Assembly (NCBI GenBank): GCA_020848905.1
Contig: JADLHG010000005.1
Location: 3,423-67,422, forward strand
Origin: Deltaproteobacteria bacterium
Lineage (GTDB): Bacteria; Myxococcota_A; Polyangia; GCA-2747355; JADLHG01
DNA: 64,000 bases
Direction: 5' to 3'
Part shown: in pieces, positions 45,603-61,571 of the stretch
How positions within the stretch are numbered: the stretch's first letter is position 1
Layout: each line of letters starts with the position of its first letter
Made by a program: the position numbers and the translations under genes
Notes under the pieces: generated by a model
What the model was told of the DNA's origin: nothing
The model's database searches: none
The model's input: only the letters and a program-made list of their open reading frames with translations

Positions 45603-46190
45603 TTAGCGCGTGGAGAGGAGGCGGCGCAGCTCGTTGTAGGCCGTCGTCAGGCGCTGGCTCAGGTCGGTCGCCAGGCGCTGCTTCTCGGGGTCCCCCGAAT
45701 GCATATCGGGGTGGTACTTCCGCATCAGGACCCGGTACTGCTTGCGCACCGCCTCCTGGTCCGCGCCGTAGGGGCATTCGAGCTGCGCGTAGAGCCGCGC
45801 GATGCGCTCGTCCTGTCCCGCCGGCCGGGGACGCGCCGCCGCCTGCGGCCCCCCGGCTCCCCCGCGACCTGCGCTCGCCGTGCTCCCGGCGTTCCCGGTG
45901 CTCCGGGGCTGCGGCCCGGCCTCGCGCCGGGTCTCCGCGCCCGGTCGGCGGCCGGGCTGCCGTAGGGCCTCCTCGACCTCGTCACGCGCTTGAGCGTCCA
46001 CCGATCGCGCCGCCCCTCGCTCGGCTGCCTCGCGCCGCTGCCGCCGCCGCGCCATCTCGGCCTCCAGCTCGCGGTCCGAGAGCTCCTCGAGAGCTCGCCC
46101 ACCCGGGGCGTGGCCCCCATCCCCCGCGCGGTCGAGGAGCGCGTTCAGGTTCGAGCGCATCAGGTCGACGAAGCGCTTGCCGATGCTCAC
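45603..46190 (-). CDS. J-domain (DnaJ-like) protein
   Basis: C-terminal J domain 'YAQLECPYGADQEAVRKQYRVLMRKYHPDM'. GTG start overlaps the PilZ stop (GTGA). The longer ORF upstream is an artefact. Confidence 0.65.
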   Translation of the reverse strand: MSIGKRFVDLMRSNLNALLDRAGDGGHAPGGRALEELSDRELEAEMARRRQRREAAERGAARSVDAQARDEVEEALRQPGRRPGAETRREAGPQPRSTGNAGSTASAGRGGAGGPQAAARPRPAGQDERIARLYAQLECPYGADQEAVRKQYRVLMRKYHPDMHSGDPEKQRLATDLSQRLTTAYNELRRLLSTR

Positions 46191-46492
46191 GGCTTCCTCG
46201 CGAGCAGCCGCTCGATGAGCCGCTGGCTGTAGGAGGTCAGCTCGACGAAGGCCACGCCCATCCCCGGCGGGTTGTGCGAGACGCGAACCACCTCGCCGAT
46301 CCCCTCGATGGTCTCGATCTCCTCGATGATCACGCTGAACCGCAGGTTGACCTTCGTCCCGGGAGGGAGCGGGTCTTTCGAGCGGATGAAGACCCCGCTG
46401 CGCGAGATGTTCGTGACGTACTCGCTGATGAACTGCTCCACGCTCGCGAACTCGTGGTTGATGGTCACGCGCTGGTCCCGGGGCACCCTCAT
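46187..46492 (-). CDS. PilZ-domain c-di-GMP-binding protein
   Basis: PilZ motifs 'RVPRDQR' (RxxxR) and 'NISRSGVFI' (D/NxSxxG). The start is at the second Met; an alternative start at 46543 is possible. Confidence 0.75.
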   Translation of the reverse strand: MRVPRDQRVTINHEFASVEQFISEYVTNISRSGVFIRSKDPLPPGTKVNLRFSVIIEEIETIEGIGEVVRVSHNPPGMGVAFVELTSYSQRLIERLLARKP

Positions 46493-46549
46493 CGCACCAC
46501 CCCGCCGCGGCCAAACATCAGAAAGCTGATTAATCCCAGGCACATGATT

Positions 46550-48064: not shown

Positions 48065-48553
48065 GGTGCGTGTGGCCTGTCGGTTCGGCGGCGCAGGGGC
48101 TCTGCTGGAGGAGACGGGCTCCCCGCCGCAGAGGTACTCCGTCGGCGGCGAGACGTCTACGACCTTTCGCGCAGGGCGCCCGGTGGGAACGCAGGGGGGG
48201 CGCGCCAGCGCGTCACACAACGCAATACAGTGTTAATTCAACACTATAAACAGTAATCCGCGTCCTCTCCGGGCCTCACCCGACCCCGGGTGGCTGACAC
48301 GGATGTCGCGCTCCGGCCGGCCCCGACCTGCCCCCTCGCCGGCGTTAGTTTTTTAACTGTGGGGACTTAGCGAACCGGCGCCCCTGTGGCACATCCGTTG
48401 CTAATTTGTTGCCCCGTCAACACGGTACGGTACGCTCCCTTACGACCCATACTGAGCGACCGGCCGTGTCCGTGGGACGGGTTGACGGCTTAGACTTTGG
48501 ATAGACTAGCTTTTTCTTAGACTTCTCGCTTAGCTAAATCTTCAGGTGTTGGT

Positions 48554-48592
48554 GAACCCCCCAGGACAAGAGCCGGGGGGTTCCGCTTTTTT
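48554..48592 (+). terminator. strong intrinsic terminator-like hairpin (9-bp G/C stem gaacccccc/ggggggttc, then a T-tract)
   Basis: 'gaaccccccaggacaagagccggggggttccgctttttt' sits at the 3' end of an ORF-free AT-richer region of 550 bp. Confidence 0.5.
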
Positions 48593-48614
48593 GGGGGCTA
48601 GCGCCAGGCGCGGG

Positions 48615-49862
48615 CTACGACGGTGAGGCGACGCTGCCGTGGGCGTGCGGGGCGTCGGCCGTGCGCGCCACGATCCCCTCGAGCCAGACCGTTCCGGCCG
48701 CCACGCACTCCTCGCTGAACCCCGCCACACGCTCGAGGTAGCTCGTCGCGCTCCCCTGCTCGAGTGCGCGACGAAAGCGCTCGAAGGCAGGGCGGTCGTG
48801 CTCGCCGCGCTCGACGTAGGCCTCGAGGTGCGCCCCGAGGGCCGGCCACGCCGCGGCGAAGGCACGCTGCTCGCCGAGCTCGGTCTGGCCCCGACCGGTG
48901 TCGGCCTCCAGCTCGGCCATCGACTCCCCCATCCCGTCGGCCAGATCGGCGAGGCGCTTGATGCGCTCCTTGATGCCGCTCGCGATGGCCGCCTGCGCCC
49001 GCCGGTACAGCGCGCGGCGCAGCGCGTCTCCCCCGGCGAGGGGGAGACGGACGGCTTCGTACCAGTGCCAGAGCGCCGCCAGGTTGCCGATGTAGCGCAG
49101 GTTCTTCTCCACCTTGGCGCGCACGCGCCCGTAGCGCTTGGGAGAGAAGGCCCGCTTCATGACGGGCAGCGATTCGCCGACCACGAGCTCGTTCGGGCCG
49201 TAGTCCCGCCGATAGACGAACCCGGCGGCCAGGACCGTGCCGTAGTCGATCGTCAGCGGACCCACGAGGCCCCCCTGCCCGCCGAGAAAGACCCGAGGCG
49301 AGCGGAGCATCACCCCCCGCGGAACATCCCCGATGAGCGACGCCGTCGCCTTGTCGCCGTGCTTGCCGAACGGCGTGTAGTTGAAGTGAATGAACGAGCT
49401 CCCGACCTCGCTGTGGTCCTTGCGGCTCGTGCCGCCGGCCATGAGCGCGTCGCAGAAGTTGATGAGGCTGCCGAGCGTCACGAAGGGCAAGAGCACCGTC
49501 TGCTTGAGCCCCACGGTGTGCGCGCCGTTCGCCTGCTCCTCGAGCAGCGTTCCCCCGCGCACGTGCGCCCCCGACCCCATCGACGCCCCGTCGAGGAAGA
49601 CCGCCTCGGAGAAGTACCCGCCGTGCAGCGAGACCCCGGGACCCACGGCGCAGTTCTCCACCGTCGCGGGCGCCTCGAAGCCGATCCGCGCCCCCGGGCA
49701 GATGAGCAGGTCCTTGCCGAAGAGCTTGGTGCCGGCGTGCAGCACCGTGCCCGGCCCATGGAGCTGTTCGAGCCGCACCTCGGGGCCGAGCTCCACCGCC
49801 TCCGGCGCCGGCAGCTCCACGCCCTGCGCCCTGAGCTGCGCCACTCTCTCGGTGTGTTGCAT
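48615..49862 (-). CDS. left-handed beta-helix (hexapeptide-repeat) protein
   Basis: Repeated [LIV]GxxxxI hexapeptide pattern, for example 'ICPGARIGFEAPATVENCAVGPGVSLHGG'. Confidence 0.6.
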   Translation of the reverse strand: MQHTERVAQLRAQGVELPAPEAVELGPEVRLEQLHGPGTVLHAGTKLFGKDLLICPGARIGFEAPATVENCAVGPGVSLHGGYFSEAVFLDGASMGSGAHVRGGTLLEEQANGAHTVGLKQTVLLPFVTLGSLINFCDALMAGGTSRKDHSEVGSSFIHFNYTPFGKHGDKATASLIGDVPRGVMLRSPRVFLGGQGGLVGPLTIDYGTVLAAGFVYRRDYGPNELVVGESLPVMKRAFSPKRYGRVRAKVEKNLRYIGNLAALWHWYEAVRLPLAGGDALRRALYRRAQAAIASGIKERIKRLADLADGMGESMAELEADTGRGQTELGEQRAFAAAWPALGAHLEAYVERGEHDRPAFERFRRALEQGSATSYLERVAGFSEECVAAGTVWLEGIVARTADAPHAHGSVASPS

Positions 49863-49880: not shown

Positions 49881-51011
49881 TCAGAAATAGATCTGCGCTC
49901 CGTGTTGGCGCTCGCGTCGCGCCACATGTTCCAGCAGGCGCCGCTTCTGCGCCAGGACGATCGCCACGTGCTCCCGCTCGACGAGCCAGCCTCTGTTCGG
50001 CCGGTGCCAGAGCGTCACGAGCTGCTCCTCGGTCAGGTGCCGGATCCGCTCCACGAGCGTGCGTCGGAAGAGCCCGAGCTCGGCGAGGAGCGCCTTGCAC
50101 AAGCGCTTCTTGCGCGGGCTGGCCGACAGGCCGTCCCCGAAGTCGATGGCGAAGAGCCGGACGCCGTCCGGAGCGTGTCGCACGCTGCCGAGGTTACGCC
50201 GCCGGTCGTTGTTGTAGACCAGGAAGTCGAGGACGAACACGTCGGCGATCTCCTGCAGCAGGGCGCTCCTTCGCACCTCCTCGCGCCGCGCAGGGGCGAG
50301 GAAGGAGGCGAGCGCGAGGAGGTTCTGGCGGGTCGCGCGGTGCGTCCCGAGCCGGTCCACGTAGGCGGGAGCCCAGACGCGGAAGAAGCCGTAGAGGCTC
50401 GGCCCCTCGGGGCCCTCCTCCCAGAGCAGGTTCTCGCGCAGCTGCTCGGGGACCCGGGGGAGGGCCGCCTCGAGCGCCTTCCGGGGGACCACCCGCTCGT
50501 GGCAGGGGGCGATGCGCACCCTGAGGTGGCGCGCGAGACGGCAGACGGCCGTCTCCGTGGCCCAGTCGCGGTACCCGCGCTGTCGCGGCTTGAAGAACAC
50601 CTCCACCGGGGGATGAGGTGGAAGCTGCACGCCGAGCCGGAACATCACCGACGGCTCGGTGGGCTTCTTGCGCACGAGAGCCTTCACCGCCGGCCTCCCG
50701 GGGGGTCTCACGAGCTTGCCGCGCGCGAGCACCTCCTCGGCCAGGCCGGGGTCGTCCATCAGCCGCAGCACGAAGGGGTTCTCGAGCGGCTGCTCGCTGC
50801 CGGGACGAAAGCTCGGCGGTCGCGTGGCGGAAATGGTGGCGGGCGGGTCCGGCTCCTCCGCGCGCACCCCCGGCGGCGCGACGAGCGGCGCGCCCAGCAG
50901 AACGACGGCGATTACGAGAATGGCAGGGCGGAACGAGCACTGCCCCTGGGGGCATCGGCGAGGCACGGCGCGGCGCGGACTAGTGCTCGTCCTTGTACTT
51001 CGCCACCTCAT
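49881..51011 (-). CDS. secreted atypical kinase-like protein (PI3/PI4-kinase-like catalytic motifs)
   Basis: Signal peptide. Catalytic-loop-like 'VLDFLVYNNDRRRNLG' and DFG-like 'FAIDFGDG'. Its start overlaps the downstream gene by about 30 nt, so the true start may be an internal GTG. Confidence 0.5.
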   Translation of the reverse strand: MRWRSTRTSTSPRRAVPRRCPQGQCSFRPAILVIAVVLLGAPLVAPPGVRAEEPDPPATISATRPPSFRPGSEQPLENPFVLRLMDDPGLAEEVLARGKLVRPPGRPAVKALVRKKPTEPSVMFRLGVQLPPHPPVEVFFKPRQRGYRDWATETAVCRLARHLRVRIAPCHERVVPRKALEAALPRVPEQLRENLLWEEGPEGPSLYGFFRVWAPAYVDRLGTHRATRQNLLALASFLAPARREEVRRSALLQEIADVFVLDFLVYNNDRRRNLGSVRHAPDGVRLFAIDFGDGLSASPRKKRLCKALLAELGLFRRTLVERIRHLTEEQLVTLWHRPNRGWLVEREHVAIVLAQKRRLLEHVARRERQHGAQIYF

Positions 51012-52236
51012 CCAGCACCGCCTTGCGCGCCTCGCGGTACTTGACCCACGCCTGCCCGACCTCGTTCAGATCCTTGTCGAAGAAGCCCTTGTTGGCCCGC
51101 TTGAAGCAGTCCTCGAGAGCCGAGCGGTCGCGGTCGTCGCCGGCCATCTTCTTGTGGACCGCCGCGTGAGCCGGGTGCTTCTTGCCCCCCTCGAGGCCGG
51201 CGTAGCACTCCTTGCGCAGCTTGTCGGCGTAGCTCGGCTCGGCCTTGCAGGTCTTGAAGATGTGCTCGATGAGCAGCTGCGTGTCGGGCGCCTTCTGCAC
51301 CTTGGCGGCCATCTTCGGCAGGTCGGGCACGGCGCAGGCGAGGAGACTCACGTAGCCCCACGACTTGGTCTGATCCGACTGCTGCGCATCGTGGAAGGCC
51401 GCGCTCGCCGCGAGGATCGCCTGCTCGTTCGCCGCGAGCTGCTTGCGGCTGTCGAGCTTGTTCGCGTAACCGTCGAAGACGCTCTTCACGGCCGGAAAGA
51501 CCGCCTTCAGGGCATCCAGTCGGGCCGCGAAGCCCGACGGCGGCTTGACCTGGCCGAAGCTCGCCGCGATGGTGTCGAGGAGCGGCAGGCACTTCTTCTT
51601 CAGGTGGTCGGGCTGGCTCTTCGGGAAGGACTTGAAGGCCTGTTCGAGCCCGTTCGTGAGGAGCATGTTGTCGGGCGCGAGCCGCACGTCCACGCCCTTC
51701 GACCGCACCACGCACTTCCAGAACTCGTCCACCTCGCCGTCGTCCACCTTGCGGAAGGCCGCGACGAACTGGCCGACCTCCTCGCGCAGCGCCTTCTTCT
51801 GCGAGCTGCGGTAGCCGAGGAAGCCGAGCACCGCCACCACCAGACCGACCGCCACCACCCAGACCATCGCCTTGTTGCGCTTCTTGGCCTTCTGCGCCTG
51901 CATGAAGGCGCTCACGTCGGCGGACCCGGCGTCCAGGCCCACCATCCCCCCGAGGCCACCGGCCGGCGCGTAGCCGAACGACCCGTCCGGTGAACCGAGG
52001 GCCGACGCGTCGCCGTAGGCCCCTTGCCCCAGCGTCGGGGCAGGGGAGGCCGGGAGGTCGGAGGGCGCGGGGGCGTAGGCCATCGGCGCGGCCGACGGTG
52101 ACGCCTGCGGCGCGGCGGGCGCCTGCGCCCGGTCGAGCGCCTGCGCGAACTGCTGCGCCGCGAGCGCGGTGCCGCAGGCCATGCACGCGGCGCTGCCATC
52201 CGGATTGGGAACGAGACACTTGGGACAGGTGATCAT
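50980..52236 (-). CDS. zinc-ribbon membrane protein with a Cys-containing extracytoplasmic domain
   Basis: N-terminal 'MITCPKCLVPNPDGSAACMACG' zinc ribbon, a Pro/Ala-rich linker, the TM segment 'AMVWVVAVGLVVAVLGFLGY', and a C-terminal domain of about 280 aa. Confidence 0.55.
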   Translation of the reverse strand: MITCPKCLVPNPDGSAACMACGTALAAQQFAQALDRAQAPAAPQASPSAAPMAYAPAPSDLPASPAPTLGQGAYGDASALGSPDGSFGYAPAGGLGGMVGLDAGSADVSAFMQAQKAKKRNKAMVWVVAVGLVVAVLGFLGYRSSQKKALREEVGQFVAAFRKVDDGEVDEFWKCVVRSKGVDVRLAPDNMLLTNGLEQAFKSFPKSQPDHLKKKCLPLLDTIAASFGQVKPPSGFAARLDALKAVFPAVKSVFDGYANKLDSRKQLAANEQAILAASAAFHDAQQSDQTKSWGYVSLLACAVPDLPKMAAKVQKAPDTQLLIEHIFKTCKAEPSYADKLRKECYAGLEGGKKHPAHAAVHKKMAGDDRDRSALEDCFKRANKGFFDKDLNEVGQAWVKYREARKAVLDEVAKYKDEH

Positions 52237-52283: not shown

Positions 52284-54275
52284 CTACGCGCTCTGCCCTC
52301 CCTGAAGGCGGGAGAAGGTCTCGGGGCCGTGGCGCCTGATGGCCTCCACGATCCCTCCGTGTTGCGCCAGCGCCTGGACCATCGGCGAGAGCGGCCGCGC
52401 GCGGAAGACCTCGCCCGTCGCGAGGGCCGTGACCGTCCCCGCGCCGAGATCTAGCTCGAGCTCGGCCCCCTCGGTGGCGAGGGCGTAGAAGCGGTCGTCG
52501 GTGACGACCATGTACGGAAGCGCTTCGTTGACCAGGTTCCGCTTGTGGATGAAGGCGAAGGATCGCGCCACTACCGCGCGGATGCCGGCTCCCTTGAGGG
52601 CCCACACCGCCTGCTCGCGCGAGCTGCCCGACCCCCACCCTTCCCCGGCCACGACGATCGCCCGTCCGCCACGCGCGCGTTCGGCGAACTCCGGACGCAC
52701 GTGATGGAAGCAGCGCGCTCCGAGCTCGGCCACGTCGGTGAGGTGGCAGAACTCGCCGGGGATGATGGCGTCCGTATCGACGTGGTCGCCGAACCGCTGT
52801 ACGGCGCCGCGGAGCCTCGCGGGTGCAGCGTCGCCGCCGAGGGTGGCCGCGCCGACCGCCCCCGTCACTGCCGTCGCCGACGGAGCAGGCTGGTCGCGAC
52901 GCACCTCCGGAAGCGCCGCGCCGGTCCGGCCGAGGAGCCGGTCGTAGCGCGCCCGATCCACGCGTTCGAGTACGGGGCGCGGGTCGGCCACGCGCAGCTC
53001 CAGCGCCGAGGCTGCCACGGTCGCCGCCGAGGAGAGCCAGGCCAGCGACCCGCGGCCCATGCGGTTCTCGAAGTTGCGGTTCTGCGAGCTGAGCCAGACC
53101 TCGCCCTCGCCCGCGCGGTCCGACGCCACGCCGAGGCACATGCTGCAGCCGGGCGGCCCCACGCGAAAACCGGCCTGCTCGTACGCGGCAAGCAGCCCCG
53201 CCTCGCGCAGCCGACCGGCGATCTCCAGGTTCCCCGGCACAACGAGCCGCTTCCCTTCGGCCGGCACGGGCCGCTTCCCGTCGGCGAGCAGCCGCTCGAG
53301 CACGAGCGCCCCCAGCACCAGCTCCTCCTCGGTCGTGGTGCACGCGCCGATGAACGCGCCGTGGAGGGCGGTCCCCGCCACCTCCTCGACGGCGGCCACG
53401 TTGTCCGGCGCGAAAGGCTTCGCCACCTGGGGCCCGAGCCGCGCGAGGTCGATCGGGTAGCGCGCCACGTACGGCGCGTCGGGGTCCGCCGCGAAGAAGA
53501 GCCCGTCGCGATGCTCGGCGCGCCGGCCGAGCAGCTCGCCCACTCTGCCGTCGGGGGCGAAGATGCCGTTGAGCCCGCCGAACTCGGCCGTCATGTTGCA
53601 GATCGTGAAGCGCATGTCGGTGGAGAAGCCCCGCGCCGCGTCGCCGCCGAACTCCACCGTGCGCTCGAGGGCCACGGTGTTGCGGCCGAGCTCACCGAGG
53701 GTCCGCAGGATCACGTCCTTGCCCCCGATGCCGAAGGGGAGGCTGCCGCGGTAATCCACGGCGATCGCCTCGGGGACCTCGATCCAGGTCTCGCCGAGCA
53801 CCATGGCCACCGCCACGTCGGCGCCGCCGAGTCCGATGGCAAAAGCGCCCACCCCACCATGCGAGCTGGTGTGCGAGTCGGCCCCGAGCACCAGGTCCCC
53901 GGGACGCACCAGGTCGCGGTAGAACGTGGTGTGCATGATCGTGACGTTGGCGTCGTAGAAGTAGCGGAGCTTCGCCTCCTTCGCGAAGTCGCGGGCCAGC
54001 TGGGCGAGCCGCTGCGTGCGCGGATCCCGCGCCAGGGTCACCGGATCCACCGTGTGGTCGAGGGCCAGATAGAAGCGGTCGGGGTCGGCTAGCGTGGGCC
54101 GGCCGAGCTCCTCGTAGGTCCGATTCATACCGTTCCAGGCCAGCTCGCTCGCGATGGTCCAGTCCACGCGCACGCGCAGGAGGTCCCCCGCTTCGACCCA
54201 GGGCCGACGGGGCGCGATGGCGTGGTGGTAGAGGATCTTGCCGGTCAGGGTCATGGGGGGGATAGGCGTCGTCAT
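52284..54275 (-). CDS. aconitase-family dehydratase with fused large (LeuC-like) and small (LeuD-like) subunit domains
   Basis: '[18 protein letters not shown]' and '[10 protein letters not shown]...PGCSMCLG' supply the Fe-S ligands. The C-terminal swivel domain is '[18 protein letters not shown]'. Confidence 0.8.
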
Positions 54276-54446
54276 GCGCGGCGTACATTAGCCGCCCCGC
54301 GCCGCCCGATCAACGAGTGGCGACAGGCCACGCGCGAGGCGGCCCGGAGCCCCAGCACGGGCGCGCGGCGCCTCGTCGGGTCACAATTGACAAATTCGCG
54401 GCCCACGCTATCTAATGCCGCGTCTCAACCACGGAGAAGCACCATC

Positions 54447-55610
<1,164 letters not shown>

Positions 55611-59150: not shown

Positions 59151-60406
59151 CTAGGTGCCCGCGGAGTAGTCCGTGGCGTACTTCACCTGCTCGGCGGTCA
59201 GCTTGTCGATCGCGACCCCCATCGTGCCGAGCTTGATCGCCGCCACGTCCTGGTCGAGCTGCTCCGGCAGCACGTAGACCTCGTTCTTCAGCTTCTTGCC
59301 CTCCTCGGCGAGCGTCTTCAGCGCGAAGAACTGGTTCGCGAAAGACATGTCCATCACCTCGGAGGGATGGCCCTCGGCCGCCGCCAGATTCACGAGCCGT
59401 CCCTTGGCGAGGACGTAGACCCGACGCCCGTCGGAGAGCGAGTACTCCTCGTTGTTCGGCCGCATCTCGCGAACCCGCCCCTTGCAGAGATCCTCGAGGT
59501 CCTTGAGGTTGATCTCGCAGTCGTAGTGACCCGTGTTGCAGACCACGGCGCCCTCTTTCATGGTCTCGAAGTGCCGCTTGACGATGATGTCCTTCATGCC
59601 CGTCGCGGTGATGAAGATGTCGCCGAGCTTCGCGGCCTCGTCCATCGGCATGACCTCGAACCCGTCGAGCACGGCCTTGAGCGCGGTCGTAGCTTTCACC
59701 TCGGTCACGATCACGCGAGACCCCGCGCCACGGGCGCGCATCGCACAGCCGCGGCCGCAGTGGCCGTAGCCGGCGACGACGAAGGTCTTGCCGGCGAAGA
59801 GAATGCTCGTCGCGCGCAGGATCCCGTCGAGCGAGCTCTGCCCGGTGCCGTAGACGTTGTCGAAGTCGCACTTGGTGATCGAATCGTTCACGGCGTAGAC
59901 CGGGTAGAGCAGCGCGCCGTCCGACGCCATGGCGCGGAGCCGCTTCACTCCCGTGGTCGTTTCTTCCGTCCCGCCGATCACCGTCTTGGCGAGCTCCTTA
60001 TGCTTGCTGTGGACGGTGAAGATCAGGTCCGCGCCGTCGTCGAGCGTCAGCGTGGGCTTGAACTCGAGCGTCTTCTCGATGCACCAGTAGAACTCCTCGC
60101 TGTTCATACCGTGCCAGGCGTAGATCGAGGTCCCCTCGGCAGCCAGCGCCGCGGCCACGTCGTCCTGCGTGGAGAGCGGGTTGCAGCCCGACCAGCTCAC
60201 CTCGGCCCCCGCGGCCTTCAGGGTCCGCACGAGCACCGCGGTCTCCTTGGTGACGTGCAGGCACCCGGCGATGCGCATCCCCGCCAGCGGTTTGGTCTGG
60301 GCGTACTTCTCGCGGATCGCCATCAGCACCGGCATCCGGGATTCGGCCCATTCGATGCGACGTCGGCCCGCGTCGGCCAGCCCGAGGTTCGCCACCTTGT
60401 AGTTCA
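59151..60406 (-). CDS. ahcY: adenosylhomocysteinase
   Basis: 'KIAGCLHVTKETAVL', NAD-binding 'VVAGYGHCGRGCA' and 'NTGHYDCEI'. RBS AAGGAG precedes the ATG. Confidence 0.92.
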
Positions 60407-60469
60407 TCTCTCGCTCCTTCGCCTCAAAGAGCCTGGTGAGTACAGCGGATCGAATTCGCAAGTCAAGGC

Positions 60470-61571
60470 GTTGATCCCTGTGCGGATCTTGGCTACACCG
60501 GCAGGCGTGGTGCTCGCACGTTATCTCGCGGCGCTGGTGCTCGTGCGGCTCGCGCTCGCCTGGCCGGTGCTCACCGCGATCTACCTGGCCTTCGACCTCG
60601 GAGATCAAGGGCGGCGGCTCGCCTCCGAGGTGGGCTGGCCCGCGGTGCTCCGGGCCGCCCTGCTCCACCTGCCACACATCGCCGTCCAGCTTCTACCGGC
60701 CGCGCTGCTGCTCGCCATCGTGCTGGCCCTAGGCACCCTGCGCCGACGCCACGAGCTCCTGAGCCTCTACGCGGCCGGGGCCTCTCCGCTCCGCCTCGGG
60801 CTACCGCTCCTCGGCATCGGCCTCGGGTGCGCCGCGCTGGCCTACCTCGTCCTCGAGTTCGCCGTACCGCCGGCCGAGCGCCGCGCCGACGCCCACTACG
60901 CCGGACGGCGCGCCTCCGCCCTCCTCGGAGCGCACCCCTCCTCGACCTGGACGCGCTCGGGATCCTGGCTCGTGCAGCTCACCCGCCGCGCAAACGAGCT
61001 CCACCTGCTCGCCCTCGAGCGCGACCCCCGCGGAGCCATCGGCCGCCGCCTCGAGGGACGCGTCTCCCCGTCGGACCCGACCCGCGTGCTCGAAGCGCGC
61101 GAGCTCCGCCCGTCCCCCTCCGGGGGCTGGACCGTGGCCCACGCGCGCGAACGGCGCTGGCCGCTCCTCGCCGAGCTCGGGCCCCTCGTCGTCGCCGCCC
61201 CGCCGCGCCCCGAAGCCCTCACCTCGCGCGAGCTGGCGCAGCTCATCGCCCGCGCTCGAGCCGCAGACCGGCCTAGCGCCGCGCTCGCGGTACTCCTTCA
61301 CACCCGCGTCTCCTTTCCCCTCTTCGCGCTCGTCGCCGCGCTCCTCGGCTGGAGCTTCGGCCTCGGCGGCGCAGCCCGACCGCTCCTGCGCGACCTGACC
61401 CTCGCGGTCGGCTTCATCGTGGGGCTCTGGCTACTTCTCGCGACCGGGTGGCTGCTCGCGCGCGCAGGCACGATCCCACCACCGCTCGGCGCGTGGCTGC
61501 CCGTCGGCCTGGCCCTCTCCGGCGCGATCCTCGTGCTGCGTCGTCGCTGGCCACGCCTGACTGCCAGCTAG
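60470..61571 (+). CDS. LptF/LptG-family (YjgP/YjgQ) permease
   Basis: Six hydrophobic segments with a periplasmic loop between TM3 and TM4. The start is uncertain: GTG at 60470 or TTG at 60461 or 60479. Confidence 0.65.

Follow-up and report, generated by a model that had tools for sequence, protein, structure and literature searches.

A gene on the minus strand of a 64,000-nucleotide (nt) stretch of a Deltaproteobacteria bacterium (contig JADLHG010000005.1, positions 3,423 to 67,422), which is called the window in the following, encodes a protein that we consider rather probable to be a Sec-exported, probably catalytically competent atypical kinase of a bacterial, mostly Myxococcota-type branch of Fam20, the family of the Golgi casein kinase and xylosylkinase. 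Judged from its sequence and its predicted fold, the protein is a compact Fam20-like atypical kinase and not a phosphatidylinositol 3- or 4-kinase (PI3/PI4 kinase) proper; an earlier note on this DNA had called it PI3/PI4-kinase-like. Fold, homology, catalytic-residue conservation, export signals and gene order were computed here, and we infer activity, location after export, partner and substrate. The gene and the elements within it are listed below, with residue numbers referring to the 376-amino-acid open reading frame (ORF).

49881..51011, minus strand: putative Fam20-like atypical kinase gene; 376-amino-acid ORF from ATG 51011, 361 amino acids from GTG 50966
50859..50966, minus strand: predicted Sec signal peptide; Arg-rich n-region, hydrophobic core, putative cleavage after VRA51
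50580..50645, minus strand: putative N-lobe ATP-binding elements; F124-R125 and FFKPRQ with K141, from the profile-to-FAM20C alignment
50553..50567, minus strand: DWATE with putative helix-C Glu153 and Asp149, from the alignment to the Fam20C AEIAAF segment; helix 148-162 in the model
50187..50228, minus strand: putative catalytic loop DFLVYNNDRRRNLG, residues 262-275, with D262, N267, D269, R270 and N273; aligned to Fam20C FDFLMGNMDRHHYE
50130..50147, minus strand: IDFGDG, residues 289-294, with the putative DFG-type metal-binding Asp290; aligned to Fam20C LDNG (Asp478)

Predicted fold and homology to Fam20

The structural model of the kinase, which was built with AlphaFold2 (AF2) on a seven-sequence alignment of the closest homologues, reached a predicted local distance difference test score (pLDDT) of 82 and a predicted template modelling score (pTM) of 0.79, and disorder was confined to the signal region. 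In the Foldseek comparison with the Protein Data Bank (PDB), for which 50 matches are listed of the 51 with an expectation value (E) ≤ 0.001, ranks 1-27 and 47 were Fam20C, Fam20A or Fam20B-type chains (E 6e-8 to 8e-4, probability 1.00, template modelling (TM) score of about 0.45). The remaining 22 listed matches were VPS34 chains with an E of about 1e-4 or weaker and a TM-score of about 0.36. Among the matches listed, the kinase fold is closest to the solved Fam20 structures.

The relationship is also visible at the sequence level, once the relatives of the protein are taken together. A word-indexed search returned just seven relatives at 40-50% identity, all of them metagenomic and unnamed. 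With a profile of the seven closest proteins, 316 out of 1.84 billion cluster representatives were found at E ≤ 1e-3, 15 of them at E ≤ 1e-30, and the few named members among the 316 are annotated as "hypothetical protein" from metagenome-assembled genomes (MAGs) of Deltaproteobacteria, Myxococcales or Proteobacteria. The Fam20C family of Pfam (PF06702) was matched at E < 0.01 by 41 of the 70 aligned members of this superfamily, and some bacterial MAG relatives lie above the Pfam cut-off (P0080 with 34.9, P0061 with 32.9 and P0036 with 32.5 bits). The 70-member profile matched human FAM20C with an E of 3.7e-27 over residues 107-429 of the chain, followed by zebrafish Fam20C (3.2e-23), FAM20A (3.4e-21), Caenorhabditis elegans Fam20 (5.1e-21) and Hydra xylosylkinase (6.2e-18), whereas PI4K type II alpha (PI4K2A) reached only 9e-4.

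The kinase-like fold, which the earlier note had read from two sequence motifs, is thus borne out, but the PI3/PI4 identity is not: Fam20 is nearer, and the matches to VPS34 and PI4K2A, which are much weaker, would reflect only the wider kinase superfamily. That note had also named PI3K/PI4K, CotH, Fam20 and HipA as folds to be compared; kinase-like matches were indeed found, Fam20 being the best of them, and the catalytic motifs align.

Within the superfamily, the window protein belongs to a narrow family of about ten representatives, which share the motifs NNDRRRNLG and IDFGDG, a Cys157/Cys170 pair and a place behind a gene for a membrane protein with a zinc ribbon and a transmembrane helix (in the following zinc-ribbon/TM gene). 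Two pattern scans of 185,579 species-representative genomes gave no confirmed relative of this narrow family, and a metagenome scan gave only two distant fragments. A third word-indexed protein search, this time based on the superfamily profile, brought hardly anything new. PDB sequence searches with the kinase protein and with the seven-sequence profile returned nothing relevant, NCBIfam, PADLOC and a plasmid tblastn search contained no match for the kinase, and no second Fam20-like gene was found in the window. In one metagenomic relative from outside the window, P0022 (1350 amino acids), a Fam20-like domain (residues 129-436) occurs together with FG-GAP repeats and a CotH kinase domain (719-897), so that a single chain combines two different atypical-kinase folds of the secreted kind.

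Conservation of the catalytic residues

The 376-amino-acid ORF contains both motifs described before, at residues 262-275 and 289-294, and their interpretation as catalytic and activation loops of a kinase-like fold holds in the alignments, with DFLVYNNDRRRNLG corresponding to the catalytic loop and IDFGDG to the DFG or metal-binding loop. Residue conservation was read in the alignment of 70 superfamily members (A3) and in that of 24 closer relatives (A4). In the profile alignment, F124-R125 pairs with the L-K that holds the first critical Lys of Fam20C, K141 of FFKPRQ aligns to Lys271 in FKPMKQ of Fam20C, ATE153TA aligns to AEIAAF with the helix-C Glu, and LD262FLVYN267ND269R270 aligns to FDFLMGNMDRHHYE. 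Fam20C needs Lys271 and Asp478, the counterparts of K141 and Asp290, to bind ATP and to be active (PMC5413348).

The seven closest homologues share both motifs without any change. Across the 70 superfamily members, D262, R270 and D290 never vary, while conservation is nearly complete (≥ 90%) at K141, E153, N267 and D269; in the 24 closer relatives, K141, E153 and D269 do not vary either. In the model, K141 ends a beta-strand, E153 lies in the next helix and both motifs follow a long helix (residues 249-263), which is the placement that a kinase fold requires. Since each of the four key positions (Lys, helix-C Glu, catalytic Asp, DFG Asp) is aligned and conserved, the window protein is probably catalytically competent.

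Other features of Fam20 are not shared. The HHYE tail that follows DR in Fam20C is not conserved in the window protein, and the only conserved cysteines are C157 and C170, which are restricted to the narrow family and do not correspond to the disulfide pattern of Fam20.

Export signal

The N-terminus of the kinase is rich in Arg and leads into a hydrophobic core of 20 residues (30-49, positions 50865-50924), which is followed by the sequence VRA|EEPD; a positive n-region stands before the core and an acidic mature N-terminus behind it. Such a distribution of charges puts the C-terminal domain on the outer side of the cytoplasmic membrane. The homologues carry short classical signal peptides, e.g. 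ending in VSA|EKE, ANA|D or SLA|AP, and the signal peptide proposed earlier is therefore upheld as a prediction, by which the kinase-like protein would enter Sec export. Export through Tat was discarded, because the RR pairs are distant from the hydrophobic core and absent in the homologues.

A hydrophobic 12-mer is present at the N-terminus of 96 of the 122 full-length superfamily members (79%), compared to 8 of 122 in an internal control window, and 39 of these 96 members also contain a lipobox-like motif. The view of the earlier note that exported kinase-fold proteins are rare outside effector contexts is weakened by these numbers, given the 316 cluster representatives of the bacterial superfamily, most of which have N-terminal signals.

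Coding frame and start codon

The G+C content at third codon positions (GC3) of the kinase frame is 0.91 and that of the neighbouring genes 0.89-0.95, in a window with about 70% G+C. From this match we conclude that the kinase ORF is a genuine and compositionally native coding frame, and a recent horizontal insertion of the gene was rejected on the same grounds.

NCBI entries identical to the kinase-like and to the zinc-ribbon protein of the window exist, and for the identical kinase protein (P0001, 361 amino acids) the start is called at GTG 50966, 13 nt past the stop of the upstream gene. The overlap of about 30 nt between the two genes, which had been reported before, amounts to 32 nt at the 3' end of the upstream gene if translation starts at ATG 51011, but exists only with that start and is absent from the gene calls in all six homologous loci. 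In addition, the GC pattern by codon position of the 15 extra codons between ATG 51011 and GTG 50966 is that of the frame of the upstream gene, although this sample is small. The overlap, which is start-codon dependent and not conserved, is therefore possible but unsupported, and we regard it as doubtful.

Either way, with a spacing of -32 or +13 nt upstream and 18 nt downstream, the kinase gene is packed closely enough with its neighbours for co-transcription. The window scan detected no terminator-like site and no convincing promoter between the genes of the string, and Rfam found no RNA family in the window. Judged from the spacing, the kinase gene would be part of one transcription unit, between the zinc-ribbon/TM gene and a gene for a beta-helix protein.

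Gene neighbourhood

The kinase gene lies in a tight gene string on the minus strand (46.2-54.3 kb). The neighbouring features are the following.

50980..52236, minus strand: gene of a bitopic zinc-ribbon/TM membrane protein, 418 amino acids, upstream of the kinase gene
52174-52227, minus strand: zinc ribbon of this protein; CxxC...CxxC at residues 4-21, weak Pfam zinc-ribbon matches
51871-52158, minus strand: disordered Pro/Ala-rich linker
51811-51870, minus strand: single transmembrane helix, residues 123-142, inside a very long helix in the model
50983-51801, minus strand: all-alpha extracytoplasmic domain, about 270 residues, six Cys (AF2 pLDDT 85)
48615..49862, minus strand: left-handed beta-helix (hexapeptide-repeat) protein, 415 amino acids, cytoplasmic, resembling the C-terminal domain of GlmU
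52284-54275, minus strand: fused large-plus-small-subunit gene of the aconitase/homoaconitase family
54222-55610, plus strand: MetK, divergent
59151-60677, minus strand: S-adenosylhomocysteine hydrolase, nearby

The upstream gene thus encodes, as noted before, a zinc ribbon, one transmembrane helix and a Cys-containing extracytoplasmic domain. With the zinc ribbon in the cytoplasm, the all-alpha domain would face the periplasm, i.e. the same side as the kinase. C175, C216, C301, C344, F281-H282 and G366-D367-x-R369-D370 are invariant in 26 homologues, and no significant fold or sequence match for the extracytoplasmic domain was found in the PDB, so that it may represent an undescribed domain. 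A weak PADLOC match to PD-T4-6 was disregarded because it falls in the low-complexity and transmembrane region.

The hexapeptide-repeat gene that had been described downstream on the same strand is present as well; it starts 18 nt past the kinase stop, behind its own GGAGG-type ribosome-binding site. Further members of the minus-strand string encode ribonuclease G (RNase G), a PilZ protein and a DnaJ-domain protein. The aconitase-family, MetK and S-adenosylhomocysteine hydrolase genes mark a housekeeping neighbourhood, which includes genes of the methyl cycle.

The zinc-ribbon/TM gene is located directly upstream of the kinase gene in all seven examined loci with one of the seven closest homologues (40-50% identity), namely the window, which is included in this count, L001, L002, L003, L006, L007 and L008. 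What follows the kinase gene differs: the beta-helix gene comes directly after it in the window, L001 and L007, and a gene for a signal-peptide PD40/Tricorn-N beta-propeller in L002 (7083-8366), L003 (2976-4244), L006 (2223-3470) and L008 (2206-3507). In L003 the beta-helix gene comes next after the propeller, on the other strand. A homologue of the PD40 propeller was looked for in the window and none was found.

Three side observations concern the string itself. The zinc-ribbon/TM gene and the GlmU-C-like beta-helix gene form a wider conserved pair beside RNase G, PilZ, DnaJ and DUF4178 genes. The DnaJ ORF (45603-46543, minus strand, 303 amino acids, C-terminal DnaJ domain) overlaps the PilZ ORF (46187-46543), and its true start is probably internal, since the counterpart in L010 has 199 amino acids. 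A gap of about 390 nt (48221-48614) separates the beta-helix gene from the longest ORF of RNase G; it could be a leader or promoter region of RNase G, and neither an Rfam match nor a promoter-like site was found in it.

Proposed mechanism and alternative explanations

If the protein acts as an exported kinase and its signal peptide is removed, putatively after Ala51, what remains in the periplasm or cell envelope would be a kinase domain of about 325 residues. The nucleotide would be bound via Arg125 and Lys141, the latter paired to Glu153 of helix C, Asp290 of the DFG motif would hold the metal, and Asp269 of the NNDRRRN loop would direct the transfer of phosphate to a hydroxyl of an envelope substrate. 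This acceptor could be a Ser or Thr of a protein, as for Fam20C, or a sugar, as for Fam20B; the sequence is compatible with both. By position alone, the extracytoplasmic all-alpha domain of the zinc-ribbon/TM protein would be the most likely docking partner or substrate, and in the sister loci the signal-peptide PD40 beta-propeller would be another candidate for either role.

Several observations weigh against this reading, and they concern the family assignment, the catalysis and the gene context. On its own, the window protein matches Fam20C of Pfam with 16.3 bits (E 0.008, residues 249-331, spanning both motifs), which is below the gathering threshold of 26.8 bits. The TM-score to the Fam20 chains is only about 0.45, and hhalign of the narrow family against one FAM20C sequence gave a probability of 15% that covers the C-lobe only, with the same motifs aligned. 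Because this direct comparison is weak, Fam20 membership rests on transitive homology together with the predicted fold. The two insertions of FAM20C (13 and 32 residues) are absent from the bacterial profile. Moreover, the essential Glu that is specific to Fam20 (Glu213 in ceFam20, Gln258 in the pseudokinase Fam20A; PMC5413348) aligns with Arg148; next to this position, Asp149 does not vary within the narrow family and might be a stand-in for the Glu. The main difficulty of the mechanism is the phosphate donor, since the periplasm is generally held to contain no adenosine triphosphate (ATP) (PMC7391070). Bacteria do release ATP, and its turnover in the periplasm is under discussion (PMC7432876).

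With regard to the gene context, the zinc-ribbon/TM gene is directly followed by the beta-helix gene, its usual neighbour, even where the kinase gene is absent, which is the case in at least four loci (L009, L010, L011 and a JGI contig). Colinearity of L010 with the window extends from the aconitase gene to DUF4178, but in the kinase's place L010 has only 5 nt, a clean difference of presence and absence. Taken together, the zinc-ribbon/TM, beta-helix and RNase G genes form a conserved backbone, in which one fixed site either holds or lacks the kinase gene, sometimes together with the propeller gene. The similarity and phylogeny of the zinc-ribbon/TM proteins do not separate kinase-bearing from kinase-free loci, and their comparison revealed no residues specific to the kinase-bearing ones. 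In addition, the gene of P0009 (42-44% identity; L012:1454-2961) is preceded, with a 4-nt overlap, by a gene for an unrelated 165-amino-acid membrane protein, and that of P0011 lies in yet another context.

These findings would be explained if the kinase were functionally unrelated to the zinc-ribbon/TM protein, i.e. an accessory gene that lies in, or became inserted into, a conserved housekeeping string and whose product acts elsewhere, for example secreted out of the cell onto the matrix or onto prey. We consider this somewhat unlikely in view of the identical position and tight spacing in seven of seven loci despite only 40-50% identity, of the native codon composition, which argues against a recent insertion, and of the prediction that the main domains of both proteins are exposed to the same side. 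Of the membrane-tethering partner that the earlier note had proposed, the conserved position upstream of the kinase therefore stands in the closest-homologue loci, but not an exclusive association of the two genes, and a specific tethering role of the zinc-ribbon/TM protein is put forward here as a plausible hypothesis.

A kinase fold could also serve without phosphotransfer, either as a pseudokinase or scaffold, as Fam20A does for Fam20C, or in AMPylation or glutamylation, as in SelO and SidJ. The absence of the Fam20-specific Glu from the aligned position (PMC5413348) would fit this explanation, a periplasm without ATP speaks against a classical kinase cycle (PMC7391070), and there is precedent for other chemistries in atypical kinase folds (references in PMC7948968). 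Such a role is nevertheless quite unlikely in our opinion, as the Lys, the helix-C Glu, the catalytic Asp and the DFG Asp are kept across about 70 diverged relatives, which is typical of active enzymes, and as the alternative chemistries need a nucleotide too.

Still less probable, and in our estimate very unlikely, is a lipid kinase of the PI3K/PI4K type that would act on a membrane lipid head group at the periplasmic face. The combination of DRRRN and IDFG resembles the DRHxxN and IDFG of PI3/PI4 kinases, VPS34 and PI4K2A were matched as described above, and three of the 70 relatives have weak PI3_PI4_kinase matches in Pfam, but Fam20 is far stronger both in the fold (6e-8 vs 1e-4) and in the profile comparison (3.7e-27 vs 9e-4) and the TM-score to VPS34 is just about 0.36. 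Furthermore, the window protein has no match to PF00454 and no helical accessory domains, and its Asn is located at +4 from the catalytic Asp and not at +5.

The catalytic loop N.D..(K/R)N resembles that of HipA. A HipA-like toxin kinase or a CotH-like spore-coat kinase is hardly credible and was rejected: weak HipA_2 matches in 13 of the 70 superfamily members and the additional CotH domain of P0022 are set against the lack of any HipA or CotH match of the window protein in Pfam, the lack of such structures among the 50 listed Foldseek matches, a signal peptide that is incompatible with a cytoplasmic toxin, and a neighbourhood with no HipB-like gene and no defence-system match.

Significance

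Fam20 is regarded as exclusive to animals, and the periplasm is generally said to be without ATP; an exported bacterial relative of Fam20 is of note on both counts. With its catalytic residues intact, a compact bacterial form would provide a tractable model of a minimal Fam20 core, would bear on the origin of the secretory-pathway kinases and would raise the testable question of phosphate donors outside the bacterial cytoplasmic membrane. If the protein were inactive or cytoplasmic, it would merely be one more uncharacterised kinase-like protein.

A more far-reaching idea, which we think rather unlikely, is that Myxococcota-type bacteria run an ATP-dependent phosphorylation of the periplasm or envelope with kinases that are homologous, possibly ancestral, to the Golgi Fam20 kinases of animals, and that the zinc-ribbon/TM protein acts as a bridge across the membrane from the kinase to a partner in the cytoplasm. 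A nucleotide supply outside the cytoplasmic membrane would then have gone unrecognised, and a kinase family that is now described as animal-specific would be of bacterial origin.

Comparison with known systems

Reviews describe the Fam20 kinases as confined to animals (PMC7948968, PMC5865150), and a survey of the Legionella kinome places FAM20 among eukaryotic- or Metazoa-specific clusters (PMC9758233). A phylogenomic preprint from 2026 names FAM20B in passing, and without further analysis, as a possible contribution of Myxococcota to eukaryotes (10.64898/2026.05.08.723234). A dedicated description of bacterial Fam20-like proteins was not found in the open-access literature, and one may exist elsewhere. 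What is new here is the Fam20 catalytic core in a bacterial, predictedly exported and shortened form and in a new gene context.

The best fold and profile matches of the window protein are Fam20C, Fam20B and Fam20A (PF06702; PDB 5yh3, 4kqa, 5xom, 5wrr). Like these, it is a signal-peptide protein predicted to act outside the cytosol, and it shows the same order of ATP-binding Lys, helix-C Glu, FD(F/Y)L..N.DR loop, D(F/N)G Asp and long C-terminal helix. Unlike them, it is bacterial, has a domain of about 325 residues without the 13- and 32-residue insertions of Fam20C, carries DRRRN and DFG in place of DRHHYE and DNG, lacks the Fam20-specific Glu at the aligned position, has only two family-conserved cysteines and is encoded next to a zinc-ribbon/TM gene. 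The identity is 14-16%, at a TM-score of about 0.45 and 16.3 bits against the Pfam cut-off of 26.8 bits.

Class III PI3K (VPS34) and type II PI4K belong to the same protein-kinase-like superfamily, share the DR..N loop and IDFG, and constitute the second tier of fold matches, but their scores are much weaker, and the window protein differs from them in having no helical or C2 domains and no lipid-kinase match in Pfam and in being predicted as exported, whereas they are cytosolic. HipA, HipA_2 and CotH are also bacterial atypical kinases with a related catalytic-loop pattern; unlike these, the window protein, which gave no match to them, is predicted to be exported and has neither an antitoxin neighbour nor a spore-coat context.

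A further related group is the unnamed bacterial Fam20-like superfamily from Deltaproteobacteria and Myxococcales MAGs, of which the window protein is a member; the catalytic residues are common to both, and most members carry signal-peptide or lipoprotein signals. From this superfamily the narrow family is set apart by NNDRRRNLG and IDFGDG, by the Cys157/Cys170 pair and by its zinc-ribbon/TM context.

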